64,000 nucleotides of DNA from NCBI GenBank assembly GCA_001662655.1, contig KV460209.1. One strand, 5' to 3'. This DNA is from Pseudogymnoascus verrucosus (taxonomy: Eukaryota). Both the position numbers and the translations under genes were made by a program. The notes beneath the pieces are model-generated. The model had not been told where the DNA came from, did no database searches, and saw only the letters and a list, made by a program, of their open reading frames with translations. Shown one piece after another: positions 30,975-52,308 of this stretch. How positions within the stretch are numbered: position 1 is the first letter of the stretch; every line of letters begins with the position of its first letter.

Positions 30975-33587
30975 TCAACGCTTGATAAGCTGGTCACCCT
31001 CTGCCCCATCATCACTTTCTTCTTCACTTTCTCCATCATCTTCATCATCAGTCTCCTCTTCGCTCTCCTCTTCATCCTCCTCTTCGTCCGAACCCTCTTC
31101 CTCAGACCCCTCCTCCTCCTCCTCTTCTTCACTTTCCTCTTCCGCCAACCAATCATCCAGCGTCTTCGCCTTCTCCTTCCCCTTCCCTTCCCCCTCACTA
31201 ACTCCGCCCCCATCACCATTCACTCCACTCCTCCCCACAACCGTCTTCCCGCTCCCTGCCGCCCGATCCAGCATTTCCCCAGCCGGCACAGACTTTGCAC
31301 TGGCCTCACCATACGCCTTCTCCTCTTCCCATTCCCTGAGACTCGGATCCGGCTCCTGACCCGCCTTCACCCAATCCGGCAATCCTTCGTACCCCTTAAT
31401 CCCCATCCCGCCCAAGCTATCTCCAATTACCAAACTTGCTGAGCCTAGCATAAACCCTTTCCTGCTCTCGCTTGGGCTCGGTACTTGCGGTACCAGTTTC
31501 GGGGCCAGGAGCATCAAGGTAGCAAGCTGTGTAGAGGAGGGAGTGGAGAGGAGGGAGCGGTAGAGGCGGAGACGGTCGCGGAGATCGTAGGATGTGTCGT
31601 ATCGCGCGAGGAGGAATATGTAATTCCATAGTAAGACAATCGGATGCTCTTCGTCTGGGCTGGCAAAGTGTGGTTGCTTAAAGTCTTCTTGCTGGGAAGG
31701 CGACGCATCGTCACCTCCGTCAGGCCGAGACCCACTGTCGGTCGGCGCTGGTTCTGCGGAAGCTTGGAGTCGGTTGAGGTAGTGCAGGTATACCTTCGCA
31801 GCGAGCAATACAATCTGTAGCTTTGCAGGCTCAGCTTCGTCTGTGAAGTTCTTGGCTAGAATGCGTAACACATCAGGCGCAATGTTGTCTTCTTCACCTA
31901 TCCCCGAGAATTCCCCCACAAGCCAGATGATGGTGGCGCGAGCCTTTGGGCTCGTGGTGGTATCTAGGCTCTTTGCTAATCGTATAACCGTCTTTATATG
32001 GGAGTCTGGGTCTTGTTGGATAAGATGGCGGATCACAGTCAGCGATTCCGCAACCAGGTTTCCATCTGGGCTGCTAATTTGCTTCAGCAAAAGTCTCATG
32101 CAGCGTCCCGACGTTTGCGCGTCCGACTGTGCACAACGTCCAATAGCACGAACGCTCTCACGGACCAGTGCTCGATCAGACCCCGATGCAAAGTGTTCAA
32201 GTTCGTTGAGTATGAGGCTCTTAATGTGGGTATCGCAATGCGGGAATATCAGGGTAAGCATTTCCAACTTAAGCTCCCAGACTTGTGCTGGGTCGGTAGT
32301 GCGAACCAGGAAATGGGAGGCAAAGCGGACGAAAGACTGTGGCTGTGAGATTGCAACTGAGACAATATTGTACAACGCAATATGTTGGATATCTTGGGGC
32401 CCACGGAGGAGGGCAACGAGAGGCCCAATCGTGGACTCGATATAAGAGGGTGTTCCGAGGTTGACGTATGCACGTGCGACAGCCACGACGACTGCTGAAT
32501 TGCGGCTTTGTAGCAGAGGCTTGATACTCTTCAGAAGAAGTTCAAGGTCGGGATTTATCACAGCAACCTCCTCGGAGATTTCTTCTTCTGCTTGGTCTTC
32601 CTCGTCTTCATAAAACCCCTTAGTTCCATTCTTCTTCTTCACAGTTGTTGTCCTTCGCGGAAAGCATCGCCTTGCATAAATAGTCATCAGCTGCAATGTC
32701 GCCAGTTGACTCCATTCATCCATATCCACGAGTTTCTTCACAAGCCCTCTGTAATGCTTATGGATCAAATCGAGCCTCTCAGGGCAGATCTCCATAAAAG
32801 TCTTCACTGCCGCACCAGCCACGTAATATTGCTTGTCTCCCAACAAGGTCGACAGGTATCCTAGCAGCTGCGGCAACGTTCCCGGGTCCAGTCTGTAGCA
32901 TTTCGGGATTGCCAGCGCAGCTGCTCTCCGTACGTGGGGGCTCATATCACCCAGTCCCTTCCGAATCGCCAGGGAAACAATCTGGCTGATCACTGGGACG
33001 CGAATCCCCGACATCGTTTTGAGGGCCATGGCCCGAACTTGGGGATTCCCATCAGATAGAGATTTCTGGATTGTGTTTATGGAGAGGAGGGCGAGGTCGG
33101 GCTCAGCTTCGGCGTGGCTTAGGAGATATATGTAGACCAGCTTTTTTATTTCGAGGTTTGGGGAGGCGACGTTTTTGACGACTGAGGAGAAAAATGGGAG
33201 ACATGGTTGAGAGCGGTGCATCAACTAAATAGTATCAGTATATGCCATATTGTAGCTTCTTGGCTCAGAGAGCGGACGCGCTTGACCCAGTTGTTTTGGC
33301 GGCTGGGGGACAGCTATTATAAGGGACACATACAGTTATAACCTTCCTCAGTCCATCAAGGACCTCTCTTTCGTTCCTGCTATCAAGCAGCTTCCTAATC
33401 TGTGCCGTCGAGAGGCTCTTCTGAGTGGAGCGCGAGCTCCGTGCTGCCTGAGCCGCATCGATGGTTAGGTCTCGAGCTATTCCCTCGTCAGCATCATAGC
33501 CCGGAGGGTCATGGAATGGAAAAATGAAGAAAGACATTACTACATACCACTTTCCAGCAGGCTGGAGATCCGAGACAGCGACTCCAT
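30975..33587 (-). CDS. APL6: AP-3 adaptor complex beta subunit
   Basis: Start MESLSRISSLLES; adaptin N-terminal motifs VVKNVAS.NLEIKKLVYIYL, LLSINTIQKSLSD and ARYDTSYDLRDR; acidic C-terminal hinge; two 5' introns. Confidence 0.93.
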
Positions 33588-33982
33588 GCTTGGGACGGGG
33601 AGCACAAGGAAACGTGCAACTTGGAGCTGTAGTGGGGTTAAGCGACGGTGACGACAATGACGCTCGTGCACCGACGTTTGGGGGTCGGCAATTATTAATT
33701 CCTGAGAGCATGCGACACCGACGTCGAGTTCTGGGATTAATTAATATCTCCCATTGAGGTTCATGGTTACGACCATATATCTAAAGTCTGCTTTCCAAAC
33801 CAGACGACCAACTAACAGCAGCCACTAACAAACTAACGGCGCGTTGACCGGTAGCCAGGAACCCGCGTCTGCCGGGCTGCAGTGACAGAGACAATTCAGC
33901 AATAGCGACAGCCACGATGACGGCCCCAACCTCTAGTCCTTGAGTCACTGCTCCCGTCTGGTGATGGGATAACTATGATCAA

Positions 33983-34789
33983 ATGGCGCCGGCATCACCA
34001 ATCGCCGTTCCTCCAGTTACGCCACGCGTTCTACTCGATTATATCCTGACCTCGACCTCATACCCCACGACCCTCCTCGTCTGCTCTCCGCGAGCAGCCT
34101 TCCTTTCGTCTCTACAGAACTCAGCATCTACCTCTTCGACATTACAATCCTCGACATCGACGCTCCACCTTCTTTCTCTCTCTCCGCACATACAAACCAT
34201 ATTCACACCCACGCTCTCCCACCTCCGCGCCTGGCTCTCTGTCGCAGACAGCAGCTGCGCCGCACCGGCCCCAGCTTCGGATCCAGTAAGCAAGGATGCA
34301 ATAGATACCGTTAAGCATGGCAATGGGAGAAGCCAGCTGGTCGTTTTGGGTCTGGTGAATATGCACAAGGGAACAAGCGAATGGAGCGTGCAAGGCTTGA
34401 GTTCAACGGCAGCAGCATTGGTAGAAGCAGGACAACGGATGGGAAGGAAGGTTGTACTGGTTGAAGAAGCTGGGAGTGACGCGACCAGGGAGGGTGAAGA
34501 CGATGAAGGCGAGCCTGTAGGGATTGAAGGCGTTGAGGCTGAAGGGGATTTGGAAGAAATACATGGCTTGAATGATAATGGCGAGCTGGTGGACGACCGC
34601 CCGGTTGAGGTTGAGCAGGTAATAAAACGGCAGTGGGGTATCTATCACAAGCGGTTACCGATGCTAAATGGTAGCTCCAAGACGGATGCCAATGACTTAG
34701 AGGCAGCGACTTGGAGTGGAAGGACAGTGGAAGTCGGCATTGTGCTGAAGCGGTGGTTTAGGTTCACAGGCGAAGATATGATACCATGA
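33983..34789 (+). CDS. Conserved fungal hypothetical alpha/beta protein (possible divergent RecA-fold / Rad51-paralog-like)
   Basis: Intronless 268-aa ORF with CAAATG start; blocks PTTLLVCS, PTLSHLRAWLS, SEWSVQGL and WSGRTV..VLKRWF. The fold assignment is inference. Confidence 0.7.
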   Translation: MAPASPIAVPPVTPRVLLDYILTSTSYPTTLLVCSPRAAFLSSLQNSASTSSTLQSSTSTLHLLSLSPHIQTIFTPTLSHLRAWLSVADSSCAAPAPASDPVSKDAIDTVKHGNGRSQLVVLGLVNMHKGTSEWSVQGLSSTAAALVEAGQRMGRKVVLVEEAGSDATREGEDDEGEPVGIEGVEAEGDLEEIHGLNDNGELVDDRPVEVEQVIKRQWGIYHKRLPMLNGSSKTDANDLEAATWSGRTVEVGIVLKRWFRFTGEDMIP

Positions 34790-35287
34790 GGCCATGATTG
34801 CAAAGGATTTGGTGGCTTTGGCATGCACAGCTGGAGAGGCAGTACAGAGAATGGACGTGACATATTTGCTACACATACATCGAATACGTTGGAGGCCGAC
34901 ATATATTCACCGTCGGGCCGGAGTAGCAGCATAGCTAACCCGGTGTAATTTAGTCCTACGGGCCTGACAAATGCTACCAGTTGGCCCGGGGCATAGTTAG
35001 GACTATCATGCTGTGGACTCTGTCGAATGGGTGTCTACATTCCTCACTTGAATGTATGCTATGAACTCAATTTCATGTCCCAGTCTCCAATGAATGACAT
35101 AATTCGGATAATGATTTGAATGCACTCTTGATGATATTTTGTACAATCGGCAACTCTCGCTACCACCCATCTATCACTCTTCTCTATCACTATCAAGCCA
35201 TCATGATACACAAAATCCACCGCTCTTCCGCCTCTATTTATCTTGCTGGAACCCCGTTTATCAACTATTAACCAAAACCCGCTCAGC

Positions 35288-36281
35288 TTAACCAATGACC
35301 AGGTTGGTCTCGTCCGCGAAGTCGTACTCTGGAATCTCGAGGTTGAGTGGTGCAGGTCCCTTGCGAATACGGCCGGAGATATCGTAATGAGAACCGTGGC
35401 AAGGGCAGAACCATCCGCCGAAGTCACCAGCCTCACCAATGGGTACGCATCCCAAATGTGTGCAGACACCTAAACGCGTGCTGTTAGTATAGGTTCCTAC
35501 AAAAAGTTGTCCCGAAAACAGGAAATTTCGGCATGTTGCGTCGTTGTTTGTACGTACCAATCATGACCAACCACTCTGGCTTCTTGACACGGTCGGCATC
35601 CTTTTGGGGGTCACGTAGCGACTCAATCTTGATATCCTCGGCCTCCTTAATCTCGTCGGCAGTACGGTGACGGATGAAGACTGGCTTTCCACGCCATTTG
35701 ATGAGAACCTGGGTAGTATAGTCAGTCTCTGGGTCTCAATTCCGCTCATAAAGAAGGTACGTACGTTCTTGCCCTCTGGGATAGCAGCAAGGTCAACCTC
35801 GACCTTGGCCATGGCCAAGACATCGGCAGATGCGGACATGTTGACAAGGAAATCTGCAGCAACCTCAAGTCAGCAAATCATCCCAATTGGCTCCCATATT
35901 CCATATTCCGTCGTCCTTTAGCCTTCGCACAGCTTCTATATCCCCAATTGATCCCTTCCAACCCTCTTCAAAGATTCACGTACCCTGAACGGTAGACTTG
36001 GCACCCGCGGCGGTGATCGCGCCCATCGACCCAACCATGAAGTATTGGAACAGGAGGTTGCTGCTCTTGGCATTCTTGCTCCTGTATTTGCTGAAATCGG
36101 GGATCTGGCTGGTATTGGCCTTGCTGGCGCTGGCCTTGAAGGGGCTCTCGAAGGCCGGGGCGTTGACGCCGGACTCGCCCGAGGCATTTTTCTGCGTAGT
36201 CGTGCTGAGCGCGCGCACGCTGCCTACGGTGCGTGGGGCAGCACGCAACAGCGCCCGCGAGCTGTGGGTGAGAGATGCCAT
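35288..36281 (-). CDS. RIP1: Cytochrome bc1 Rieske iron-sulfur subunit, mitochondrial
   Basis: Arg/Ser-rich presequence; [32 protein letters not shown] and GPAPLNL; three introns. Confidence 0.97.
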
Positions 36282-36397
36282 GTCGTAGGTGGGAGGTTGT
36301 GCGTGGACAGAGGAGACAAAGAGCGACGAATTGGATGGATGGGTGTTGTCGGATTGATTTTGAGGTTCGGCAAAGTCAAGGTCGTATAAGCCGCTCC

Positions 36398-36523
36398 TGA
36401 TTGGCTCGTGCTATTTCTACTGGTACGCCACGTGACTCTCGGTCATTAATGGACCTCTCGTCATAAACATCTCGACAAACATGATTTGATCTGGGCTCAG
36501 GAACAGAAAATCTACGATTGGCC
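36398..36523 (-). promoter_or_regulatory. Two CCAAT boxes plus a CACGTG E-box in the RIP1 promoter
   Basis: TGATTGGCT at 36398, CGATTGGCC at 36515 and CACGTGA at 36429. Confidence 0.45.
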
Positions 36524-37295
36524 ACGAAATGAGCAATTATGTGCCATGTCTCGTATGTCTCATGTTTGGGAGCATAAATCTGTGTGTAACTTTACTCAAT
36601 ACTGTTTTTTTTCCTGTGTTTCTTCATTGAGTTTATCACGTGTATTTTGTCACAGTTTAAGGCGTAAAATTGTTATTGGATGAAGCAATGAAGTGAAAAG
36701 TTTAAAGCATAGCGTATCAATTATCAGTTTGAGCGTGTTAGTGAATCATTTATATTGTATAATACTGTTTATTCAGAAGCAAGACTTCCAGAAATTGTTA
36801 CTCCTTACGACCGCTTAAATTGGATTTGCACGTGATTTCACATTGCTGCTCAACTAGGATTAGCGTTATATACAGGTACATAAATTCCAATGTAGCCGGT
36901 GCGGGGTCGCCTAAAAATTGGGGAAAGCTCCCTGACAACTCTCATATTCCATGGTGCCGCTGTCCATAATTCTTCCTCGAATGACCCACCCCGTCACAGT
37001 GCTCTAAGGACGGCCTGAGAACGGCTTGTTGCTTTGGCTGCCGGAGAAACTATTCTATTAGAGCTTGTTACTGGGAATCTAACCTGCAGGCCACTAATTT
37101 TATTTCCCTTTAGATTAACAGCAAGGCTATTTTGTAGCTCTACCATCACCGCTGTTCCTAGCCGTATTTCTCCGCAAGTTAGAGCCGGAGATATTTACTA
37201 ACAATGCAAGTAGGATGGATAAGGTTATAAACCAAGCACTGTGGACACTATGAAGCTTCTGCCAAGCAGTTTGTGAGCTCTAAAGTCTTATCAAA

Positions 37296-38486
37296 ATGGT
37301 GAAACAAATAATTGGTTGCGTTGCTGCCTTCCTTGTCTCTGGATTCTTCTCCACAGCGACTGCCTCTGCTGTTCCTGATCCTCGTCATACGTGCCAGTAT
37401 CCGACTAAAAATGCTCTCGAGGGATGTCCCAAGAATAGCATCCTCGTTGGACAGGACTCCTCGGTCGCCAAGTTCACATCCATTCAGAAAGCTATTTCAT
37501 CGCTCCCAGATAATGACACCGCCTTCACTATTGTGGTTCTCTCAGGAAACTACACGGAGCAGTTGAATGTTACGCGCAAAGCTCCTATTACGATCATTGG
37601 GCAAACCCGTACTCCATTGGAACAATCAGAGAACACCGTGACTGTATACTGGTCATCCATCAATGGTGCTGGTTCGGGTCTCACCGACAATGCTTATACA
37701 TCGGTCTTGACAGTCGCGCCGAATCTGAACGCCAGTCTCACAGGGTCTGGACCTACTGGGTTCCCCGTCCCTGCGGACACGCCATTTGGCAACAGCGATT
37801 TCCGTGTCTACAACATCGACTTCCGCAATGTCGCCACCGAAATAGGTGCAGGGCCATCTCTAGCAGTCAGTGTGAGCAGGGCCAACGCTGGTTTCTACTC
37901 TTGTGGCTTCTACAGCTACCAGGATACCGTCTATGTTGGCAAGCTCGGTAACGCCTATTTTTACAAGAACGAAATTGCCGGCCAGACTGATTTCCTCTAT
38001 GGATTCGGAACGGCATGGCTTGAGCGCACGAATCTGGCACTGCGCAGATGTGGCGGTGGGATTATTGCGTGGAAAGGGACTAACACGACGTTTGCCAACC
38101 AGTACGGCTGTTACGTCTCGAACTCGTTTATCAACGCAGCAAATTCTTCCATTGCTCCGGCTATTGCTGGGAAATGCTCTCTCGGTAGGCCGTGGAATGC
38201 ACAGCATCGCAGTGTTTATTTGAATACTTTCATGGACGCTTCGGTCTTGCCAGCTGGGTACACGAAATGGTCGAGTAATCCTTTGACGAACAACTATAAC
38301 AATTATACCTTCATGGGGGAATATGGATCGTATGGTCCAGGCTTCAACTTGACTGCACGATTGGCTGGAAATGTCACCATTGTGCTGGATAAGAAGACGG
38401 CAAAGAAGTACCTCCATCCTCGGGATGTTTTTATCACTCACGAGGGCAAGCCTAATGTCAAATGGATTGACCCACGCTATCTATGA
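37296..38486 (+). CDS. Secreted pectin methylesterase, carbohydrate esterase family 8 (intronless)
   Basis: Signal peptide; FTSIQKAI, G.YTEQ, YSYQDT, GQTDFLYGFG and LGRPW are CE8 catalytic motifs. Confidence 0.92.
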   Translation: MVKQIIGCVAAFLVSGFFSTATASAVPDPRHTCQYPTKNALEGCPKNSILVGQDSSVAKFTSIQKAISSLPDNDTAFTIVVLSGNYTEQLNVTRKAPITIIGQTRTPLEQSENTVTVYWSSINGAGSGLTDNAYTSVLTVAPNLNASLTGSGPTGFPVPADTPFGNSDFRVYNIDFRNVATEIGAGPSLAVSVSRANAGFYSCGFYSYQDTVYVGKLGNAYFYKNEIAGQTDFLYGFGTAWLERTNLALRRCGGGIIAWKGTNTTFANQYGCYVSNSFINAANSSIAPAIAGKCSLGRPWNAQHRSVYLNTFMDASVLPAGYTKWSSNPLTNNYNNYTFMGEYGSYGPGFNLTARLAGNVTIVLDKKTAKKYLHPRDVFITHEGKPNVKWIDPRYL

Positions 38487-38993
38487 ATTCGGCGCCAAGA
38501 GGAGTTCTTGGGTGGTATTCTGAGTTAGATAAGCAGATCTTAAGTAGAATAGATAAAATCAATGAGAAAATGGTGTTGGATTTGAGCTATCTGAGAATAA
38601 TCCAAGTGTGCAATCGTGTAGTATCTAGCCATTCCAGTCACTGTGAATGGTACATTAATTATACTTTAACGAAGCTACCCTTTCTCATATCTCCCCGAAA
38701 GTCTTGGCCCTTTGAGTAAGTGGGCCAACTACTGTCCATAGTCTGACCCATCATATGCACAGCCAGCCTGCGGTTAAGTACGCTGATATTACAAGTAAGG
38801 CACGGCATTTTACTGGTTGTACACACTTGTACACTACAGAACTAAGCAATACACCCCTGAGACATGTCAAGCTGGACGAATTCCATAAATAGCTTTACAG
38901 TTTTGGCTAAATAGAGAAAATGACAACTCTAATATTCCACCCCCACCCAAATACCTACGGCAGAAATATTATCCTTCACTCTTTTCTATCTCA

Positions 38994-40417
38994 TTAAGCA
39001 GCAGCAGTGCAGTTCAAACCAAGCTCTGCCACGTTAATCTGTCATTTTAGTTAGCATAATTCTGTCATATCAGGGAACTGCAAAACTTACGTTAGAGCAT
39101 TTAGCCTGGCTCTTGCCACTGGGAGCCTTGACCTGGAAGTTCTCGGTGCGGATGTTCTCACACGCCTCTGGAGACGGGCAAGCAACAGTGGCGACATAGG
39201 GGTCGTACTTCTTGTTGGAGACGCCGGTGAAGTCCTTGAAAAGGACATCTGAGATGTGGAATTTCGGGGGGCGGGCAGCACAGGCCGCGGCATCCTTGAC
39301 GGTGTAGCAGCCCGTAACCTCAATCGGCCAGTCTACATTCTGCACGTCGTACTTGTCATAGACGACGTTCTTGACGTAGCCGCTGCCACCACCGGAGTTC
39401 ATGGTCACGTTGTCGGGGGCGCCGGGAAAGACCTTGATGCGGGCTCCGTCGCCGGCGTTGGACATGCTGGTGTTGTAGACGAGGACGTCCTCGACGATAT
39501 CAACGACGCCAACGTATTGACCCAGAGAGCCAACGGAGATGCCGTGAGATCCGTTGCAGCGGAGGTTCTGGACGAGGATCTGGGTGCTGTTTGGCTTGAA
39601 CGAAACACAATCATCGGTATTATCAATGATTGAGTTCTGGATAACGATGCTGGAAGAACGGTAGGTGTCCCAGCCGTCGGTGTTCTTGGCTGGGTTGCCG
39701 ACAGCGGCAACCTTCAGGTTCATGTTATCAATAACGATGTTGGTGGAGTTTGCGACCAGGTTGAACCAGTTGGGCGGGTTCACCATGTTGAGGTTGGACA
39801 TGGTGCCACCCTCCAGGCCGTCAATGACGAATAGGAGAGGCCTCTTGGCAGTTGGCTCCTTGACAAATAAATCATACCAGACCTGCCCTTTTCCATCGAT
39901 CACGCCGCCGCCAAAGATGTTGACATCCTTGCCGCCAACAGCGAAAAATGCGCTGGAGTCTTGGAACTTGTACTTCAACGAATTGGCTTGCCAGTAATTG
40001 GTATCCGTGGTAAACGTCAAAGTTCCTTGGATATCTGATAACAGTTAGAAGCTGACGCTATGATTTCAGAGAAGGATACGTACCCCAGTCGACATGCTTC
40101 AAAAATGTCAGGTCCATGACCGTGCCAATGGTGTAGGTAACGCCTTTATCAAGGACGACATGACCGCCATTGTTGCATTCATGGAATGACTTCAAGAGAG
40201 CCGCAGAGTCATCTGCAGTACCGCCCTTGACATGGCAAGTCTTGTGTCTCGGAGGCGAATTCCTGGGCAGCTTCGTCTTCAAAGTCTTAGGACCAACATG
40301 GATTTGAGGACGGGTTTTCGGGACGCCTGGGACGCCGGGGTGATTGGATGCCGGCACTGTCAACGCATCGACAGCGAGAAGCTGGAGGGCCAAAGTAAGA
40401 ACGTAAGAGAGCTGCAT
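38994..40417 (-). CDS. Secreted GH28 exo-polygalacturonase (PgaX-like)
   Basis: Signal peptide MQLSYVL; RHKTCHV, KNTDGWDTYRS, DDCVSFKPNST, GSHGISVGSLGQY and RIK; two introns (last 39090-39039). Confidence 0.92.
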
Positions 40418-41469
40418 GATTGACACGTGATTATCGAATTCGATGTGGATGCAGGCATATTGATTTGCGGAGCTCTTCTATATAAATATCTACGCCTCAA
40501 TTGAGGGGAACTGTGCAATCTCTCGTCCAGACTTGGCTCTATCCAACAATACAAGAATAGGAGAATATTTACTCCGTGAGAAGAACGCGCTTCTGCACCT
40601 CGTCCCGTTTGAGCAAAGATGTTCCGACGTCAATCATCAGATAGAAATGCTAGGACCCTGGTCTCGTTTACATTGGCGTCTGGGGTTTTCGGCTCGGGCA
40701 CGAGGTGATCGACCGCGAGCCGGTTCTGTTAGATCCAAGGGTATCCTTGGTTGGTGGGTTTAAATTTCCCCAACGCCTCCATATCAGCCATTTTTTTAGA
40801 GTAGCAAGGAGTCCACGAGCTTCGTATAAAAAATGTGTTTATGACGAGGTGTCGTTAAAATAGGTTGTAGGAGCTTCCATTTACCCGGATGTTCCCGTCC
40901 CCCAGTATGCATGGGGTCAATTTACCCAGAGGCGTCCGGCAGGCATGTTCATTTACCCAAAAGCCACCGGTATGCGTGTTCATTTATCCAAAGGTTTAGC
41001 CACGCTGGGTCGTCCGAGGTTCATTGCCCATTGGCTCGAAAATACATGTCAATCGCGACGAAATCAAACTCCCTTGCTGGTGCCGCGCCATACAAGCAGA
41101 TCAGAAGGAAGTGCCTCTCGCTCAAGCATTTTGTTCCCCCGCACATCAATGCATGGCTAGGGCTGAGTGGGGTACTGCAACCTTACCAAGCCACAGGTAC
41201 CGACGGGTGGGGAAGATTGCGGAGTAGCCGTGGTAGCCGTGGTAGCCGTAGAGCTGGGGTTCTCATCAGTTCTTACTTTACAACTCTTCGTATCTCGGTT
41301 AGCAGCAACATTACAGTGGCTTTCTCATTAGAGCAAGTTATGAAGTGTCAAAATATTTGATTCTCCGTCTGAATAAGGTTTTCCCGGCCTATTTACCCGC
41401 CTGTCACTTCCTTCCCGACTACAATCCACCAACCATGTGCTGTGGACCTTTGTTCGCATCTCATTCAGC

Positions 41470-42702
41470 TCATCCTGAAGCCCCTGAGCTACAGGTTATC
41501 CCAGCGCTGCTACTGACACCATTGCAGAGGTTCTTGGCCGTGCCGCTCGGTGGGTTCACGGCGTAGTTGGTGAAGTGAATATCACAGGATCCCGTGAGCT
41601 TGCAGTTAAGGTTTGACACCACTGGCGCATACTTGGAGTTGGTCGTGCCCTTGAAATTCTTGAAGTTGATCCCCGTCAAGCTTGCTGATGCCGGGTTCGC
41701 AGCGCAGTCCGCATCAGACGACGCGCCGTAGCAGGTTTGGATTTGAGCAGCATACTCGCATCCGTTGACAGTGACCCCGTCATACGTGACGTTGGAGACG
41801 GTGGAAGAACCGTGGCTGGATCCGCCGTTGTACAGCTTAATGCCTACTGCCTTGGTGCAGTCGTTCATTATGGCGTTTGTGACATATACGTTCTTGACAG
41901 TATCCGCGTTGGTTTTACCAAGAGATCCGACAGAGAGGCCGTGACTAGCACCAGAGCATGTGACGCCATCGACAGTCACGTAGTTGCAGCCGCCCTTGAA
42001 AGCAATGCAGTCATCGTAGTTGGTGATTTTCACATCTTTGATGGTGGTGTAGGTGCTCTCTCCAACGTCAAATCCGTCGGTGTTCTTGGGAAGGTTGGTG
42101 GACTTGGACGCGGCATCCATGGTCAGGCTTGCGTAGTTCATGTTGGTTGCGGCACCCTTCTGGTTGATGAAGACGTTAGGGGGGTTCTTGATTCTGAACC
42201 CCGAGGCGACGAGGTTGGAACCACCCAGAACATTTAGCACGGTTGGTCGTTTAAGTGATGAATCTACTGCGAAAATATCATAGGCGTTTTGGCCGTTCCC
42301 ATCAATGACGCCGGTACCAGTGAGTGAGCGGAATTTGGCTCCATTGATGTTTTTCATCAAGATAATTGCTTCCTGGGTGGCCCAGTACGTGGTATCACTG
42401 GATACTTTCAACAAAGCTTCAAACTGGAAATCGCAGTTTGTGCAACCAGTGAAATCCAGCATAGTCCGGATGCTGTAGGTCTTGCCAGCTGGAAGGACAA
42501 TTGTGCCTCCATTGCCACATGAAGTTATAGCTGCTTTGATGGCTGGAGTATCATCCTTCGAAGTGTCGTCAAGACTGGCTGGAGTGCATGTAGCCCGCTT
42601 TGCATGGGCCACGCGGTCTGGCACGAGCCCATCTGCGGGTGCAGCAAAGGTAGAAGTAGCCCCAAGGGCAACAAGAAGCAGATTGAGTGAGAGAGCCAAC
42701 AT
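41470..42702 (-). CDS. xghA: Secreted GH28 endo-xylogalacturonan hydrolase (XghA-like)
   Basis: Signal peptide and KR propeptide; SCGNGGTIV, RSLTG.GVIDGNGQ, KNPPNVF, KNTDGFD.GESTY, SHG.SVGSLGK, HG.STVSNVT and terminal C.SGASG match recalled Aspergillus XghA. Confidence 0.9.
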   Translation of the reverse strand: MLALSLNLLLVALGATSTFAAPADGLVPDRVAHAKRATCTPASLDDTSKDDTPAIKAAITSCGNGGTIVLPAGKTYSIRTMLDFTGCTNCDFQFEALLKVSSDTTYWATQEAIILMKNINGAKFRSLTGTGVIDGNGQNAYDIFAVDSSLKRPTVLNVLGGSNLVASGFRIKNPPNVFINQKGAATNMNYASLTMDAASKSTNLPKNTDGFDVGESTYTTIKDVKITNYDDCIAFKGGCNYVTVDGVTCSGASHGLSVGSLGKTNADTVKNVYVTNAIMNDCTKAVGIKLYNGGSSHGSSTVSNVTYDGVTVNGCEYAAQIQTCYGASSDADCAANPASASLTGINFKNFKGTTNSKYAPVVSNLNCKLTGSCDIHFTNYAVNPPSGTAKNLCNGVSSSAGITCSSGASG

Positions 42703-43063
42703 GATGAACAGTGGGGAGCAAAGAGTCTGGAACGAAAATCAGAGAAAGGGAGGTCGCCGGCAGCAGCTATATACACCCTTGTTATGCCATGCCGTACGGT
42801 AAAACTAACGTGCCAGTGAATTGATAGCCGTTGAAGACTGATCATGTGAAGATCGGCATATAGTGCTGTCAGTTCATTTAAGAAATTTTAGAGTTCCTCC
42901 TTGGTGGAATATCCCTGTATTTGAAACGTATCGGTGAAATATAACAACACTATAATAACTGGGTATATGATATTATCTTTTGTATGTATAATAAACATAG
43001 GTGCCCTCGAGAAAAAACTAGTCGAGCAACTCAACCATCTTAAAAATCTTGTCGTCTATCATC

Positions 43064-44219
43064 ATGAAGTTTACCCTCCTTGTTTCAGGAGCCTTGGCTC
43101 TTCTGGGGATCGGCGAGGCGATGGCCGCCCCGAGCCCTGCACTGGTCAAAAGAACGGCCCGCACAAGCACCCCTACCGGATGCTTGACGGTTCGGGGATC
43201 AGGGACTAAGAGTGGTGAGTATTCAACCATGACCGCTGCTCTTGCTGCCTTGGGTTCCGGATCTGCATCTGCATGCATCTTCGTGTACAGCGGTACATAT
43301 AACGAAGCATTCCGCATCGCATACAATGGTCCATTGATTCTGTATGGTTATACTGCCGAGTGAGTTATATCATCTATTCACCTTGCAGTTTCTAACCTTC
43401 TCATAGTACCGGCACATACAAGTCCAATGTAGTCACCTTCCAGCGTAGTATGAGTTCGACGGATGCTGGCAACCTTGATGCCTCTTCAGTGGCCAACATT
43501 GTAAGCGCCAACTTCAAGGCCTACAACATCAACTTCAAGAACACCTATGGCTCCGGGTCCCAAGCCGTTGCTGTAACAGCCAATGGCGACAAGCAGGGCT
43601 TCTACGGGTGCGGATTCTACGGTTATCAGGATACTCTCTATGCCAAAAATGGCAAGCAGTACTATTCCAATTGCTACATGGAGGGGGCCGTTGATTATAT
43701 CTTTGGAAACGCTGCTGCTTGGTTTGGCGAATGCACTATTGCAAGCAATGGCGGCGGCGCCATCACTGCTACTTCACGAGAAGATCCAGCTGATGCTTCC
43801 CGCTACGTCTTCGACCACAGCACTGTAGGTTCCTCAAGTCGCACAGTAACTGCGTCGGTCCAGTTTCTAACATATAACAGGTTACCGCTGCCTCTGGGGC
43901 TAGTGTCGTTGGGAAGGTGTACCTCGGCCGACCGTGGAGAGTTTTGTCTCGCGTCATGTTCCAAAACTCTGTGCTAACAAACGTCGTGAATGCAAAGGGC
44001 TGGACTACCATGGCGGACGGAGCGACCCCGTAAGTAGCTGTCCATCTTCATACCAAAATACAGAACTAACAAAAAGACAGGATCTATACCGAGTACAACA
44101 ACAGTGGTGCGGGAAGCGATACCTCGTCTAGACAATTTTTGACCGCGTCCTCGGCTGCGATTAGCAAAGAGACTGTGTGGGGCAGCGATTGGAAAACTTG
44201 GGTCGACACATCCTACTAG
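43064..44219 (+). CDS. Secreted pectin methylesterase, CE8 (PmeA-like)
   Basis: Signal peptide and KR; RTSTPTGCLTV, QAVA, GYQDTL, EGAVDYIFG and YLGRPW; three introns; ends DWKTWVDTSY*. Confidence 0.93.
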
Positions 44220-45230
44220 GAGCCTTGCTACCAGTTCGAAGTTTCCCCGCGGGGTGGAGTGGGATGTAGTGGGGATGATGATGGGGTAGGATATCTGAGG
44301 GTAAAAATGTGAAATAGTCCGTCCTTCGTTGGGATCCACTACCCCGGGTTTACGATTTTTTTACTTCTTGTCTATAGCCTACTTGTTTATAGTCTTGATC
44401 TTGAAATCAAATCAAATTCAGTGAAATAGGTCCCAGTTTCATTAATAAGGAAAGAGCTTCAAATTTTACTGATGTAGGCCAGAAGCCTCTAACATCGGCT
44501 GCACGGCGATACGGTCAGTCTATGCACAGCTAATATAAGAGGAGCACCTAGTCTTACCGCTCCCGAGAACCACGAGTTCCGTTCCACATCACGGCTACAC
44601 TTCCCCGCGACTTTTGATGACAGCACATGGTCCATAGATCCGTGTTCCTCATAGAGTAATTACTATGAAGTAGTAGGGAAGCGTCGTCAGATCCTCCACG
44701 GCCCTTGTTCGTTACGGATACTCTTTAGGATATGTCGGCGTTCGTCGGCTCCTCTCCGCCCGAGTATTGAACTGTAAGACCAATGGTACCCTAGGTATTT
44801 TAAGAATAAGGCCCACTTGGCACGCCGGGTAAAGGGAAATCAGACCAACGTTTAACCGGACCTGGGGTTTTCGACTTTATCCACTAACATGTGTTGAAAC
44901 TGTGGCGACAGTCTCCAGTCCCCACGATTACAGTCCGTTCGTATGGTGGATTATTCTCCAGGTTTTGAATCCCTATCACGCTTAAATTTCCCGTCATGGC
45001 ACAAGACCCAATGTCTTGGGCCAGTAATGTCGCGTGGAGAATGGATATGGAATTTAGTTTTTCCATCTGTAATCGCAGTTGGTGCTTTCGGTGGACGGGA
45101 TGTAGTAAAGGGGGCCCAGCGTATCAATGAGAGCTTCCTATAAGAATGTAGGCCCATGACATTTTATAGGAATCAGCTTGGCTCTTTCCAACAACTCCGC
45201 GGATACTGCTCATTAATACCGCCTTTGAAA

Positions 45231-47154
45231 ATGGTTTTCTTCAAGACTACAAAGAAGAGATGGTACAATTGGTAGGCAATTCTCACTCCACGAGCCGTGA
45301 CCACACACGCTAATCCTATCCGCTTCAGGTACATCTCGCTCGTTGCCGCAGCATGCATGGTGCTGTACGGTTATGATGCGTCGACCTATAATGGTAAGTT
45401 TGATATGTCAGGAACGTTATAAACTATAATTATGTTAACACGAATAGCCTGCCAGAACTCCCCTCATTGGGTGGATTACTTCGACAACCCCGTAAGTATA
45501 AATCTTGCCCCTATCTAGACTCATGCTGATCACGTGATTATACAGAATTCCTACACTCTCGGTCTCATTAATACGTCCTACAATATTGGCGGCATCGTTT
45601 CTGGTTTCTTTTTCGGCGGGCCAATTGTATGTTGACCTCCAGTCATTGTGATAAAGTGTGGCAACTGACAGCTCTAAAGGCCGATAGATTCGGGCGAAGA
45701 TGGGGAATGGGAATTGGTTGCTTCATGACCATCATCGCTACTTTCATGCAAACATTTGCACCTGAGCATAATGTTGGTGTCTTTATCGCCGGTCGTGTCA
45801 TTATTGGACTTGGCCAGGGTATTGCATTGAGTATGTGCTCCCATTTTTGCCTGCCCCAATCATGACAATCAAAGAGCTATAGCTGACCGGCATACCCATA
45901 GCTTCTGGACCAATTTACATCGGAGAGTTGGCCCCTACCGAGATTCGTGGCCAAATCATGGGCTTCTGGCAGTTGTTCTACTCTGTGGGATCCTTCATTG
46001 CATACTGGATTGCATACGCCACTGGACTTCATTCCGAGGCCTTGGGCCAATGGGACTGGAAGTTGGTCATCATCTTCCAGATTATGGTCCCTGCAATCAT
46101 CTGCGTTCTCTTGCCATTCATTCCAGAGACGCCCAGATGGTACATTCAAAAAGGCAGAATTGAAGAAGCAAGGGCATCGCTCATGAAGATTCGTGACACA
46201 CCTGAAGAAGTCGAAGAGGAGATCTTGATGATTCGCGAGGCAATGGCATACGAAAACGAAATGAACAGTGGCAACCAGGGTCTATCCCAGTACAAGGCTT
46301 TGCTTACGGACAGGTCTGTTCGTAAGCGTCTTTGGATTGCCTTCATTATCAACGGCGGGCAGCAGCTCACTGGCCAAGGCAGTCTCAACTCATACTCGTC
46401 GCAGATCTACAAGGGAATCTACAAGGATAAGCACACCATCGATTTGATCAATGCCATCAACGGAACTTGCGGTATTCTGTTCACATTGAACGCTGTCTGG
46501 ACTGTCGATCGATACGGCCGAAAGTTCCTCTTCATCGTAGGAGGAATCGGAATGGCAGTCTGCATGATCGCTTTTGCATCCGTCGGCATCGCCACCCCTG
46601 ACACCTTCTACCTGTCCAAAGGAAAGGAAGTTCTCACCAAAGAGCAGCCCGTCGGCATTGCCCTCACGTTCTTGCTCTTCCTCTTCATCTTCTTCTACAA
46701 GCCAACTTGGGGTGCAACCACCTGGATTTGGACCGCTGAAGTCTTCTCGATGAACGTCCGCGCCCAAGCTGTCGGCATGTGCTCGCAGTGGCAGAACGTC
46801 TCCAACCTGATCTTTAACCAGTTCTTCCCAGTCTTCCTAGCCAAGGCTAGTTTGTAAGTCTCTCAACCTCCTTGCTGATTTCCATAGCTAACTTGTCGCA
46901 GCTACACCTTCTACTTCTTTGGTGGGATCAACGTTATGCTTGCCATATTTGTCTTGTTCATCGTCCCAGAGACGAGGAACGTCATGCTGGAGGAGATGGA
47001 CACTCTCTTCGGTGGACCTAACCATATCGAGAAGGGAGGAGCCCAGCTCTTTGAAAATGGTGACGACAAGGTTGGTACTACTGCAAACACGGAGCTCAAG
47101 AACATCGCTGTGGAGGAAGAGCATGCGCCCGCTGTTGCTGGGTCAAAGGTTTAG
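45231..47154 (+). CDS. MFS sugar porter family transporter (lactose/oligosaccharide-permease-like)
   Basis: Six introns splice to give YGYDAS, DYFDNP, ADRFGRR, GELAPTEIRG, PETPRW, QQLTGQ, VDRYGRK, W.WTAEVF...VRA and VPETR..LEEMD.LF. Confidence 0.92.
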
Positions 47155-48091
47155 TGGTTGTCTGGTTGGAAACTCTGTGTCGTTTGACATGTGAGTGGTA
47201 CATCATGGCGAGGAAGAGGAGCCTTTCTAGAGGCCGGTTCTATACAGCAACATAAACCACAATATTAGCGAGCTAGTCTCTAATATATTTTAATTGATTG
47301 CTGGAACAATAACTGCGTACGCAATTTATATGGTTTATTTGTTTGAATGTGACTATGAGTGCATCGGGGTCTGGCGTCTCTGAGTATGAGTATTCAACGC
47401 CCAGAATATTCGGTTTTAAAGCTATGCTACCCACGCCCATCCCATCGTTGTGATATTGCCCCTGTAATAGTTCTCATGCTCCATCTAGGCTTGGAAATAC
47501 GATTGTGAAGAAAGGAATGTGCTAAAATCTGCTGCCGTTGTATAGATCTCCCAAATGACTTGCAACGCTTGTCGTCAACAATACAAGTAAATTAACACTA
47601 CTCATGCTTTCCAAGATATCAGAGAACAGATTATATACGTCTGGGGATCGATAACTGCAACTAAAGTCAATAGAACTTTTCCCCTGTTTAATTTTCCCGT
47701 AGCTAATCTTCTGGTTTTTTTTTATGTATAATAATATTTAATTATCAAGGTATTTTATTGATAGTTGCTATAATTTTCAACAACAATAATATAGTCTACA
47801 GACTACTTTTAGTCCCCTAGAAACTATTATAGATATTGTATATCTTAGGCTTTGAGGCAGCATTAATAATCTACAGTGTTTAAGTTTTTATATCCGTGTA
47901 GTATGCATTCAACTGTCGAGAGTACTCGAGCAACACTGGTGGCGTATAATACCGTGACAATTACCATCGGATCAGTCATCACTCACAGCTTCCGTAGAGG
48001 TTAAAGGCTTGCATGTCATTATTTTACGAGTCTTTGTTTATTTAACAATCAACAAGATAGTGGTCGGTGTCAATCATCCCCATTGTTGCTC

Positions 48092-48146
48092 CACTGCTCA
48101 GGGTCTAACTTAATCACTGCACTGCTCAGGGTCGAGCTTAATCACT
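48092..48146. repeat. 28-bp-period tandem duplication CACTGCTCAGGGTC.A.CTTAATCACT
   Basis: Copies at 48092-48118 and 48120-48146 with 2 mismatches. Confidence 0.85.
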
Positions 48147-48230
48147 CACGAATTCCATAATCTTGAAAACGCTTGCTTGATATTCATGTCCATTATTTTA
48201 CAAGCTTCGTCTATTTAACAATACACACGC

Positions 48231-50094
48231 CTAATGGCCGTGTCCATCATCGCCGTCGCCACGCTGTTCAGGATCCAATTTTATCATCGTATCTATGCGC
48301 ATGATCGATATGCACGCCTCGACCGCCGACTTCAATTGCCTGATCTTGCTCATGCTTGGCTCAAGCACGCCAGCCTTGATCTCATCGACCACCTTGCCCT
48401 TCGTCAGGTCCAACCCGTAGTTCTTGTAGTTCTTCTTCTTCGCAATGCTCTTCTCGTCCTCATTCGCATCTCCGTCCTTGATGCGCTGGGATAAGGCGTG
48501 GCGGGAACGGAGCTGTGCAACGAGTTCTGAGGAGTCCTTTGCAGCGTTGACAGCAAGGGTCTTGGGAATGATGAGGAGAGCCTGGGCGAATTCGCCAATG
48601 GCGAGCTGCTCGCGGGAACCAACGGTGCCGGCGAACTCCTCCAGGTAGATGTGGAGAGCTGTCTCGACGGCGCCGCCACCTGGGACGATGGAGCCACTTT
48701 CGAGGGTACGCTTGACAGCGCAGAGGGAGTCGTGGACGGATCTCTCCATCTCGTCCAGCTGGAAGTCGTTCGCACCGCGGAGAATGATGGACGCAGAGGT
48801 GTGGACCTTGGTGCCCTTGACCAAGATGCACTCGTCGTCTGAAATTCTCTCCTGGACAACCTCCTCGGCGTAACCCAACGACGAAGCCTCGAACTTCTCG
48901 TCACCGTTAAGGTCGGATAGCGAGGAGACGAGGGTAGCACCGGTGGCTTTGGCGATTCTGCGAAGATCCTCCTTCTTACAGCGGCGGACAGCCATGGCAC
49001 CCTTCTCGATGAAGAGCTTGAGGACCAAGTCATCAATTCCCTTGGTGGTGAAGATGACGTTTGCTCCGGACTTCAGGATCATCTCAACTCTGTCCATAAC
49101 GATACCTGACTCGCGCTGTCTGATTTGCTCAAGCTGTTGCGGGTCGTCGATTGTGATGTGAACTCCCAACTTCATTCTCTCCTTTTGTAGGTTCATGTCT
49201 AAAACGGCGATCTTGGCATCCTTGACATGGGTAGTCATTGCCTGCGAAGCGACAGTGCAGTTAAGCGCGTATCCCTTCACCAGAATAGACTCCAATGCCC
49301 CCTTTCCGTGAGCCTTGAGGATATTGACTGCCTTGACTGGGTATTTCGTCTCATTTCTGTTGTTTGTCGACTTGACTGCCTGCATAGCATCCACAACCAT
49401 GTTCGCAAAGAAGTCGGAGTCAGATCCGATAATTTTGCTGGACATCGAGGTTTTGGCGATGTTGATGAGCGATTCCCGTCCGAGGTTGTCGACCTTCACG
49501 CTGATGTTCTCGTGCATGTATTTGACGGCTTCGCGGAGGGCAAGGCGGTAACCTGTGATGATTGTGGTTGGGTGTATGCGGTTCTTCATAAGGTCGTTTC
49601 CTCGTCGGAGGAGCTCTGCTGCTATTATGACAACGGAAGTCGTTCCATCTCCAACCTCCTTATCTTGCTGTTGTGCCAGCTCCACCAAGATTTTTCCGGC
49701 CGGGTGTTCGACATCTAATAGAGACAGGATGGTAGCTCCGTCGTTTGTAACCGTAACGTCCTGTAGGAAAACGTCAATAGGGGAAATAGGGATAGATGTG
49801 GCATCGTGCGTACTCCTATGTCATCCACCATCATCTTGTCTAAGCCACTGGGGCCAAACGAACTCTTCACTACATTGGCAATGGCTTGAGTAGCGAGAAC
49901 TAAGAACTTGTCAGTATGTATGTCTGTTGCTGGGGTGTATAATCTGCCATACCATTCTGATCACGAATATCTGATCCGCTGATCTTTGTTCCTCCCAGGA
50001 CTAAACATTTATCAGTCCATATTGGTTAATATAAGCAGTTGGATTTCATACAAAGCGTTCCCGCATTCCTAGGCTGTTCGAATAATCCAGACAT
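48231..50094 (-). CDS. TCP1: T-complex protein 1 alpha subunit (CCT1)
   Basis: Start [42 protein letters not shown] and PGGGAVE; three short 5' introns. Confidence 0.96.
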
Positions 50095-50430
50095 GATGGC
50101 GTATATGGGTCTGTAGCAACACTTTACTGCAGCTATCTCAACCTCACACACCGTCGCGAAAATGTTCAGAGACGCGGCGAAGCTTGGACGCTAGCAACAA
50201 CAAGGTTAGCGCCAAAAGTGCTGGGGTGGTGTCGGCTAAACCGCGCTAATGGTGGGGGGACAGCGCGGGAGGTCACTCGGACTTCAGGGTTCACACACCG
50301 AATGAGTCGAGAACAATATTTTGTTGTCCACCTGACAACTCGACACTGATAAGAACTTCAACCCCCAAATTCAAGCCATATATACATCTACAGACGCCGA
50401 ATACAATATCTACTGTGATATACAGTGAGA

Positions 50431-52308
50431 ATGGCCTCGAAGGGCCCAGAAGCTCCTGCAGCGCAACAAATTATCGACAATGCGGCGAACAAGATTTCAG
50501 AGGCGGTAGGAGGGGTTCCAGCAGTGCAACAAGTTGTCGGCAATGGCACAAGCAAGCCTGCAGAGGGCGCAAGCGGAGCCCCATCAGAGACGTCCAAGAG
50601 CGCACTTAAAAAGGCAGAAAAGCAGGCGAAGATGGCCGCAGATAAGGCGGCGAAGGCTGCTAAGAACGCGCTTGTAGTTGGGCAGGGCAAGAAGACAGAC
50701 GATATCATTGGAATAACCGTATCCAAGGAGGAGGACTTTTCTGCATGGTATCAAGAGGTTGTTGTCAAGTCGGAGATGATTGAATACTATCAAGAGATTG
50801 CGGGGTTCTTTATTCTGCGCCCAAGGTCCATGTTCATTTGGAACACCATCAAGAAATGGTTTACTGCAGAGATTGAGGAGCTAGGCGTGGAGGAAGCCAG
50901 TTTCCCTATGTTCTTGTCGCAGAGGGCGATCGAGAGAGAGAAGAAGCACGTGGAGGGTTTCGCACCCGAACTTGCTTGGGTTACCAAAGCGTCAGTTACC
51001 CCGCTTCTCCCCCTTCACCCTCAAGCACATTTCGGCTGCTAACAGTTCAACAGAGGCGACAAAGACCTTGAGGCTCCAGTTGCTGTCCGTCCCACTTCCG
51101 AAGTTATCCTGTACCCATTCTACGCGAAGTGGATCCGAAGCCATCGCGACCTTCCCCTCCGCCTTAATCAATGGAATACCGTCGTCAGATGGGAGGCTAA
51201 GCAGACCACTCCATTCCTCCGAGCACGTGAGTTTGAATGGCAGGAAGGACACACCGCATCCGTGTCAGAGGAACTGGCTGGAAAGGAGGTTCTCCAGATA
51301 TTGGAGTTGTATGCCAAGGTTTATGAAGATCTGTTGGCTGTCCCGGTCGTTCGTGGGAGAAAGACGGAGAAAGAGAAGTTTGCTGGAGGATACTATACCA
51401 CGACTGTTGAAGGATATATCCCATCCAATGGCCGCGGAATTCAAGGCGCCACGTCCCATTGCCTGGGCCAGAATTTTAGCAAGATGTTCGACATTACGAT
51501 TGAAGATCCAAACCCAAAGGCTGGAGAGAAACCCGGCCATATGCACGTCTGGCAAAACTCCTGGGGCATGTCGACTCGTGTCATTGGTGTCATGGTTATG
51601 ATCCATGGTGATAACAAGGGCCTAGTCCTCCCACCAAGGATTGCGCGCGACCAGGTCGTCATTATCCCAGTCGGAATCAACAAGAGCACGACTGCAGAAG
51701 ATAAGGAGCGCCATTATGATCAATTGCAGGCCATGAAGGCTACGTTGAAGAAGGTTGGTGTTCGTGCTGATTACGATATCCGCGATGGTTATACCCCAGC
51801 TTGGAAGTTCAACGACCACGAGCTCAAGGGTGTCCCTCTGAGACTTGAGTATGGTCCAAAGGACGCAGCCAAGAATGTCGTGAGCTACGCTCGCCGTGAC
51901 ACTGGAGAAAAAGGAACTATTGCCATTGCCAACCTCGCGACTGAGGTCGCTGAGCTCCTTGAGACCATTCAGAAAGACATGTATACCAAAGCCGAAGCTA
52001 ATTTCCGGGCCCACCGTATCACTGTCACCAAGTGGGACGATGTTATCCCCGCCCTTGATGCCAAGAACGTTGTTTTAATCCCTTACTGTTTGGCCGAGAA
52101 GTGCGAAGATAAGATCAAGGAATTGACCACTGTCGATGACTCCGCCCACGAGGGTCCCCTTGAGAAGAAGGCCCCAAGTATGGGCATGAAGAGTCTCTGC
52201 ATTCCCTTCGAACAGCCAGAAGGTATCGTGAAGGGTGAAACCAAGTGCTTGAACCCTGAGTGCGGAGCATTCGCTGAGAAGTGGTGTATGTTCGGAAGAA
52301 GTTACTGA
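50431..52308 (+). CDS. Cytosolic prolyl-tRNA synthetase
   Basis: FSAWYQEV, HVEGFAPELAWVT, RPTSE, QGATSHCLGQNFSKMF, QNSWG.STR and terminal FGRSY; intron 50991-51053. Confidence 0.96.

Follow-up and report, generated by a model that had tools for sequence, protein, structure and literature searches.

In Aspergillus niger, a CE8 pectin methylesterase (NRRL3_07470/An04g09690) and a xylogalacturonase (NRRL3_07469/An04g09700) carry consecutive gene identifiers (PMC5847190, Table 1), and overexpression of gaaR raises both An04g09690 and An04g09700 (PMC5847190). The two genes, named pmeB and xghA, belong to one expression sub-cluster, and both are controlled by GaaR and AraR (PMC5701360, in which the terms 'adjacent', 'genomic location' and 'physically' do not occur). 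More generally, the default rule of CGC-Finder recognises a cluster wherever a carbohydrate-active enzyme (CAZyme) gene and a transporter gene have at most two genes between them, and a stricter rule, used for the CAZ-GCs of Trichoderma, yields 26-35 clusters per genome. As for uptake, the galacturonate transporter GAT-1 of Neurospora crassa carries a quinate-transporter annotation, and its homologues, including A. niger GatA and Botrytis cinerea BcHXT15, form clades beside quinate permeases (excerpts of PMC3933009). In this paper we study a window of 64,000 nucleotides from Pseudogymnoascus verrucosus (GenBank contig KV460209.1), in which two CE8 pectinesterase genes (CE8a and CE8b), two GH28 genes (GH28a and an XghA-like gene, called XghA below) and a sugar porter gene stand together between two housekeeping genes, RIP1 and CCT1.

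Our main conclusion, to which we give a probability of roughly 0.6, is that these genes form a genuine five-gene CAZyme cluster of a saprotrophic Pseudogymnoascus, conserved across the genus, which has grown around an older two-gene unit, CE8b-XghA. A preliminary description of this DNA had reported the five families in the order CE8a, GH28a, XghA, CE8b, transporter with nothing unrelated between them, the two housekeeping flanks, and the lack of any transcription factor gene in the locus; Pfam searches and gene models bear out each of these points, and in the annotation tables of relatives the genes follow one another directly. It had also assumed that fungal pectinase genes are usually scattered, a premise that overlooks both A. 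niger, where pmeB adjoins xghA and shares its regulation, and the dozens of CAZyme clusters catalogued per fungal genome.

Gene content, conservation and decay of the locus

The five genes fill the interval from the ATG of CE8a at 37296 to the stop codon of the transporter at 47154, and no other gene with a Pfam family is present there (Table 1). Gene models were built by hand, from GT..AG introns laid over stop-to-stop open reading frames (ORFs) searched with Pfam, and the model of GH28a was corrected against a Pseudogymnoascus protein of 440 amino acids (aa). The resulting lengths agree with those in the excerpts of published models from relatives (396, 435-441, 410, 333 and 528 aa). Splicing can be checked against run X14. 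None of the listed runs is recorded as RNA, but X14 is RNA of a close relative, since its contigs are spliced. These contigs contain all six introns of the transporter (6/6) as GT..AG joints, and three CT..AC joints, that is, minus-strand introns, in the Rieske gene; a loose contig end at 39091 matches the spliced-on last exon of GH28a and supports the last intron of that gene. The contigs of X14 map to the transporter, GH28a and CE8b, with only a trace on CE8a and none on XghA, blanks that are uninformative as to silence. Runs X6, X21 and X22 were considered as RNA with the cluster on or off, and were rejected: X6 is DNA of a relative, X21 gave four partial contigs, and X22 gave none.

Conservation within the genus was assessed from the supplementary annotation tables of PMC5750222 (here and below, in excerpts), from locus tags and from metagenome contigs; supplementary file 3 of that paper was excluded, its ortho-group identifiers disagreeing with the annotation tables. 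Of the six tables of non-pathogenic members, the five examined (24MN13, WSF3629, P. verrucosus, 23342-1-I1 and 05NY08) all list the four enzyme genes consecutively and in identical order. For 24MN13, the excerpt further shows a transporter orthologue of 528 aa adjoining CE8b and the Rieske gene flanking the locus as it does in our window. It also lists an extra hypothetical gene of 1030 aa (VE04_00034) between the transporter and CCT1, where the window has a spacer of about 1.1 kb. Judged by locus tags, CE8a and XghA are two tags apart in three strains and five in two, and lie on separate contigs in one; the spacing of five instead of two suggests that some annotators called extra small genes there. 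Similarly, in strain VKM F-4515 the transporter orthologue V496_03882 (96% identical) is two locus tags from XghA, V496_03884.

Other collections agree. The CE8a and XghA proteins occur letter for letter in the protein collection searched, where their clusters at 90% identity (30 and 33 members, respectively) consist of Pseudogymnoascus and environmental proteins. Contigs of X6 cover 30 of 30 bins of 33000-51000 and bridge the gene boundaries, and at least half of the sampled words are present in 6 of the 24 runs listed, one of which may be the source of the window itself; the analysis drew on runs with the larger shares of words. The genes themselves are already in public annotations, and eggNOG text in the PMC5750222 excerpts names the xylogalacturonan function. 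Linkage in relatives, which the preliminary description had set as a test, holds genus-wide and, for the CE8b-XghA pair, far beyond the genus.

The bat pathogen P. destructans departs from this pattern. Its interval from VC83_06874 (Rieske) to VC83_06880 (CCT1) contains, in the published table excerpt, five short models only: a CE8 model of 224 aa (CE8a has 396), a GH28 piece of 96 aa (XghA has 410), two pectinesterase pieces of 118 and 70 aa (CE8b has 333) and an MFS piece of 200 aa (the transporter has 528). No counterpart of the 440-aa exo-polygalacturonase GH28a is listed in that interval of the table. The 96-aa piece is 96% identical to the window's XghA over residues 188-281, and because the remnant is still so similar, the decay of the cluster appears to be recent. 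According to the same source, P. destructans has 179 CAZymes, where its relatives average 493, with one CE8 and four GH28 genes against 4-6 and 8-13, and its growth on both pectin and D-galacturonate is scored 0; six non-pathogenic species reach 0.12-0.48 on pectin and 0.10-0.54 on D-galacturonate. The decay fits a functional cluster under relaxed selection, and offers a concrete, block-wise case of how CAZymes were lost as a saprotroph became an animal pathogen.

One might ask whether the cluster is instead an island that arrived between RIP1 and CCT1 by horizontal transfer. Pectin genes do stand here among housekeeping genes, and the G+C content at 44-48 kb (0.45-0.47) is below that of most of the window, which is fungal DNA of about 50% G+C. 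We regard such an origin as very improbable. The close homologues are all fungal, with their best matches in Leotiomycetes, and the genes have short fungal introns. Moreover, no direct or inverted repeats were found bracketing the locus, and the low G+C falls mostly in intergenic and intron-rich stretches.

The surroundings add nothing further to the cluster. Pfam identifies the Rieske and UCR_TM domains of RIP1 on the left, with an adaptin gene farther left, and the Cpn60_TCP1 domain of CCT1 on the right. Six longer intergenic ORFs match no Pfam family. Among ORFs of at least 140 aa elsewhere in the window, which encode housekeeping or unrelated proteins, there is no further CAZyme and no fungal transcription factor, and neither these ORFs nor the locus and its flanks contain a Zn_clus, Fungal_trans or other DNA-binding family recognised by Pfam.

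Table 1. Coordinates of genes, supporting ORFs and sequence elements in the window and, in the last three rows, in environmental contigs (E, Pfam E-value)
Feature	Position	Strand	Details
CE8a	37296-38486	+	396 aa, no introns, N-terminal hydrophobic leader
Pectinesterase ORF (CE8a)	37284-38486	+	E 9.7e-30
GH28a	38994-40417	-	440 aa, 2 introns; exons 40084-40417, 39091-40034, 38994-39038
Glyco_hydro_28 (PF00295) ORF, GH28a	39070-40044	-	E 1.3e-47
CCACCAA	40751-40757	-	oriented as GH28a, 334 nt before its ATG; single site, background density
CCNCCAA	41426		44 nt beyond XghA stop
XghA-like	41470-42702	-	410 aa, single exon
Glyco_hydro_28 (PF00295) ORF, XghA-like	41470-42738	-	E 6.8e-43
XghA/CE8b shared head-to-head promoter	42703-43063		361 bp
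CCACCAA in XghA/CE8b promoter	42901-42907	- (XghA orientation)	5' end 205 nt from XghA ATG
CE8b	43064-44219	+	333 aa, 3 introns; exons 43064-43359, 43407-43824, 43881-44029, 44081-44219
Pectinesterase ORF, CE8b exon 2	43396-43977	+	E 2.5e-28
MFS sugar porter	45231-47154	+	528 aa, 7 exons, 6 introns
Sugar_tr, three ORFs	45572-47154	+	best E 2.6e-67
RIP1 (Rieske iron-sulfur protein), left flank	35150-36410	-	housekeeping, outside cluster; Pfam Rieske + UCR_TM at 35288-36410
CCT1 (T-complex protein 1 alpha), main exon, right flank	48231-49820	-	housekeeping, outside cluster; Cpn60_TCP1 E 1.4e-148
Tandem 28-nt repeat pair	48089-48144		copies 89% alike, just downstream of CCT1 main exon; weaker third copy at 48259
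CE8-GH28 fusion gene	L018:1187-3435		
CE8-GH28 fusion gene	L019:80-2328		
CE8-GH28 fusion gene	L020:4669-6914		

Predicted functions of the five products

Pectin methylesterases, as known from the carrot and Erwinia enzymes, use an active-site set of two Gln, two Asp and one Arg. CE8b holds this full set, in the motifs SQAVAV (its Q), YQDT, VDYIFG and LGRPW, and is predicted to be a canonical pectin methylesterase. CE8a is only 30% identical to CE8b. Its nearest solved structures are pectin methylesterases (E 6.3e-19), and it keeps QDT, TDFLYG (with the second Asp) and LGRPW, with Ser in place of the first active-site Gln. This replacement recurs, together with an insertion of about 20 aa, in a relative at 55% identity on the environmental contig L016 (L016:1518-2738); the two shared features therefore suggest a distinct CE8 subfamily, whose substrate may differ from the usual methyl ester.

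The two GH28 enzymes are 33% identical to each other, and the preliminary labels, XghA-like for one and PgaX-like for the other, agree with their nearest matches. Residues 27-410 of XghA match an endo-xylogalacturonan hydrolase of known structure, 4C2L from Aspergillus tubingensis, with a phmmer E of 5.3e-134, and the motifs NTDGFD, DDC, SHG and GIK align with the same motifs of that enzyme. Endo-polygalacturonases commonly have RIK where XghA has GIK. By these sequence criteria, the product of 41470-42702 is an XghA orthologue and a predicted endo-xylogalacturonan hydrolase. GH28a, with the motifs NTDGWD, DDCVSFK, SHG and RIK, was compared with the best 120 of 1506 matches at E<=1e-30. Among these, a closer group at 68-94% identity comes from Pseudogymnoascus, Leptodontidium and environmental sequences, and the named matches, at 54-59%, are mostly called 'exopolygalacturonase X' or 'galacturonan 1,4-alpha-galacturonidase'. 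GH28a is thus exo-polygalacturonase-like (PgaX type) in its sequence, the names of its relatives being annotations rather than assays.

The transporter has orthologues in Pseudogymnoascus, Sclerotinia, Botrytis, Cadophora and Rutstroemia (74-96% identity), and a second tier at 63-69% includes proteins labelled quinate permease by their sources; homologues with that label were seen at 60-65%, and the transporter names found in the Atlas are generic. Subfamily and genomic position together suggest galacturonate as a candidate cargo.

Taken together, these predictions describe a short degradation route. The four enzymes, all of which start with a short hydrophobic leader as judged by eye, would be secreted; the 'Secreted' column in the excerpted supplementary rows is blank throughout and is uninformative on this point. 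CE8b, and perhaps the atypical CE8a, would strip methyl esters from homogalacturonan and xylogalacturonan; XghA would cleave the xylose-substituted backbone internally; GH28a would free galacturonate from chain ends; and the neighbouring sugar porter would import it. A GaaR-type galacturonate-responsive activator, acting in trans through CCACCAA boxes, probably drives at least XghA, CE8b and GH28a.

The CE8b-XghA pair beyond the genus and its regulation

In order to learn how far the linkage of these genes extends, we searched metagenome contigs with an alignment of XghA relatives, which gave 304 pattern stretches, of which 91 were confirmed and 80 kept. Twenty-five of the loci, L001-L025, are XghA-like at 36-65% identity and represent 21 distinct sequences after four near-identical pairs are merged; their neighbours were sorted by tblastn with the five window proteins. 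Since they include HET, Fungal_trans and SUR7 domains, we take these contigs to be fungal. Eight lineages are uninformative, having only 52-700 nt upstream. In 10 of the 13 informative distinct lineages, a CE8b-type gene lies directly beside XghA: head-to-head in L006/7, L009, L010, L012, L013/14, L015, L016 and L017, and with both genes on one strand in L018 and L019/20. No CE8 was found in L002, L004 and L023/25, where 7.9-10 kb upstream was searched. The genes around the pair are unrelated to it, the Pfam families among 100 flanking ORFs including copper amine oxidase, NmrA, dehydrogenases, HET and STT3.

In the same-strand lineages, the two genes are fused into one. On L018-L020, a single frame of 549-550 aa encodes a complete CE8 domain that is joined, by a linker rich in Ser and Thr, to the first half of an XghA-like GH28 domain, the rest of which follows after a short intron. 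The fusion is found in two of the ten CE8b-XghA lineages, L018 and L019/20; L018 and L019 differ by 8% in DNA, and its persistence between copies so diverged indicates that it is not a sequencing slip. Thirteen long GH28 representatives were also tested; they combine GH28 with GH28 or with other beta-helix models, and none is a CE8 fusion.

The pair also occurs a second time within the genus. In four of the five species tables, an unlinked CE8 (330-332 aa) and an XghA-like gene (384-407 aa) are adjacent and head-to-head on opposite strands (VE00_02882/3, VE01_07190/1, VE03_06146/7 and VF21_06875/6, as given in the excerpts), so that both genes seem to have been copied together.

Regulation provides further evidence on the pair. 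The GaaR box (GARE) of A. niger is CCNCCAA, counted within 1 kb upstream (PMC5847190). Among the nine distinct head-to-head loci, four (the window, L007, L016 and L017) have CCACCAA in the same orientation 176-274 nt upstream of the XghA start, and three of these four have the longer word TTCCACCAA-R-GA in common. The position of the box gives fair support for GaaR-type control of the XghA-CE8b pair, in line with A. niger; for the other genes, it gives none. Across the 64-kb window, CCNCCAA is over-represented, with 69 occurrences against 40.5 expected (0 of 100 shuffles reach 69), mostly outside the cluster, and single sites therefore mean little.

These observations can be extended into a broader proposal, which we put forward tentatively and whose chances we place somewhat short of even: that head-to-head CE8b-XghA is an ancient unit of the Pezizomycotina, kept by selection from Aspergillus to Leotiomycetes, which removes esters from xylogalacturonan and then cuts it. 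Under this proposal, the unit would have been duplicated within Pseudogymnoascus genomes, would have a GaaR box at a fixed place in its shared promoter and would have become, in some lineages, a single bifunctional CE8-GH28 gene. Nowhere would it be more elaborate than in the five-gene locus, which adds an importer, an exo-enzyme and another esterase, the latter from a new subfamily; this whole block would then have decayed in place as P. destructans moved from plant litter to the skin of bats. Neither a Pseudogymnoascus pectin cluster nor a conserved pme-xgh pair is described in the literature that we searched, most subscription journals lying outside that search.

The same data suggest a narrower alternative, in which only the CE8b-XghA pair is selected and co-regulated, and CE8a, GH28a and the transporter, whose cargo may not be galacturonate, came to adjoin it through local history (duplication or rearrangement) in the ancestor of the genus, staying there because the genus is young rather than because their linkage is useful. 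Outside the genus, indeed, the other three genes are missing where the pair recurs, among unrelated neighbours, and neither CE8a nor the transporter has an exact GARE. Furthermore, the comparison is between close relatives (identity is at least 90% among cluster members and 96% for the P. destructans remnant), and conserved order in the genus is therefore weak evidence of selection. Against this alternative stands the distant contig L016, on which L016:1-8199 links the N-terminal end of a same-branch transporter (65% identity, at the contig end) with CE8a (58%), CE8b and XghA (42%), without GH28a and in a different order, which points to repeated or retained linkage. In addition, all five genes suit one substrate, and a chance run of four such pectin genes would be expected at about 10^-7 per genome, by arithmetic from the 4-6 CE8 genes, 8-13 GH28 genes and about 10^4 genes of relatives (the last estimated from identifiers reaching VE04_09591). 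On balance, we consider it unlikely that the pair alone is selected. Beyond the cluster genes, L016 continues with an enoyl-CoA hydratase and a HAD gene, both unrelated.

Several further results nonetheless weigh against the five-gene cluster that we prefer. First, in four environmental loci with 10 kb on each side, the pair occurs without such a transporter, exo-polygalacturonase or CE8a; it follows that only the CE8b-XghA pair is widely constrained. Second, by the excerpted counts, about two thirds of the whole CAZyme repertoire is gone from P. destructans, and the decay of the locus is therefore not specific evidence. Third, the regulatory signal is limited. The four loci with a positioned box were matched in 1 of 20000 shuffles, for a band chosen after seeing the data and with five of the starts estimated. 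The four cluster promoters hold three CCNCCAA in 3.3 kb, a density not above that of the whole window, and the intergenic density in the environmental loci is likewise at background. For CE8a and the transporter, roughly 0.9-1 kb of upstream sequence contains no exact CCNCCAA, and a k-mer search found no 8-mer common to at least three of the four promoters. Fourth, the composition of the locus is incomplete for its presumed substrate: it contains no xylosidase for the xylose side chains, no galacturonate catabolic gene and no regulator. Finally, CE8a is without one canonical active-site Gln, so that its esterase activity is only putative, and the branch of the transporter also includes quinate permeases.

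Whichever way the other three genes are read, the pairing has predictive value, as a CE8 gene found beside an XghA-like GH28 probably shares its substrate. It is also a case of one pectinase pair that keeps its linkage over long fungal evolutionary distances, up to gene fusion, and the XghA-CE8b promoter offers a simple system in which to study how GaaR controls two genes from one promoter.

Comparison with known systems

Bacteroidetes polysaccharide utilisation loci (PULs) were the analogy proposed in the preliminary description, and it is a loose one. As in a PUL, an esterase, endo- and exo-hydrolases and an importer for one glycan lie side by side. The analogy fails, however, for the remaining components: Pfam searches of the longer ORFs of 30975-49820 return CE8, GH28, Sugar_tr and housekeeping families only, with no SusC/SusD pair, and the locus has no sensor or regulator, no operon, and neither the xylosidase nor the galacturonate catabolic genes, the latter being elsewhere. 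Its genes are monocistronic, on both strands and with their own promoters, and its enzymes are presumably secreted rather than surface-bound.

The likeness to A. niger pmeB/xghA is closer for the core of the locus. In both fungi a CE8 gene neighbours a xylogalacturonase gene, and the A. niger pair is induced by galacturonate and polygalacturonate under GaaR and AraR. This comparison relies on consecutive gene identifiers for the A. niger pair, and CE8b is likened to pmeB as the pectin methylesterase beside xghA. To such a pair, the window adds an atypical second CE8, an exo-polygalacturonase-like GH28 and a sugar porter. The porter belongs to the branch labelled 'quinate permease' that, according to PMC3933009, holds galacturonate transporters such as GAT-1 and GatA/BcHXT15; it differs from GAT-1 and GatA in its linkage to pectinase genes, which is not reported for those two in the excerpts of PMC3933009.

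Among fungal systems, the locus most resembles the CAZ-GCs of Trichoderma and the CAZyme gene clusters (CGCs) of dbCAN. With four CAZyme genes and a sugar porter in succession, it is a cluster under the default rule of CGC-Finder, as judged from the definition, and the stricter rule covers it as well, at least three CAZyme genes and a transporter being within two genes of each other. It differs from fungal CGCs in that all its members point to one polysaccharide and in having no transcription factor gene; with none in the locus or its flanks, it falls outside the original three-class definition. Cold-active pectinolytic activity has reportedly been found, in one paper, in Geomyces/Pseudogymnoascus isolates, and the locus can be viewed as a compact package that joins cold-adapted enzymes for pectin and xylogalacturonan to a putative importer of galacturonate. 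It leaves the overall view of how fungi use polysaccharides as it was: rather than a PUL in the strict sense, this is an ordinary CAZyme gene cluster, of a kind already catalogued in fungi.

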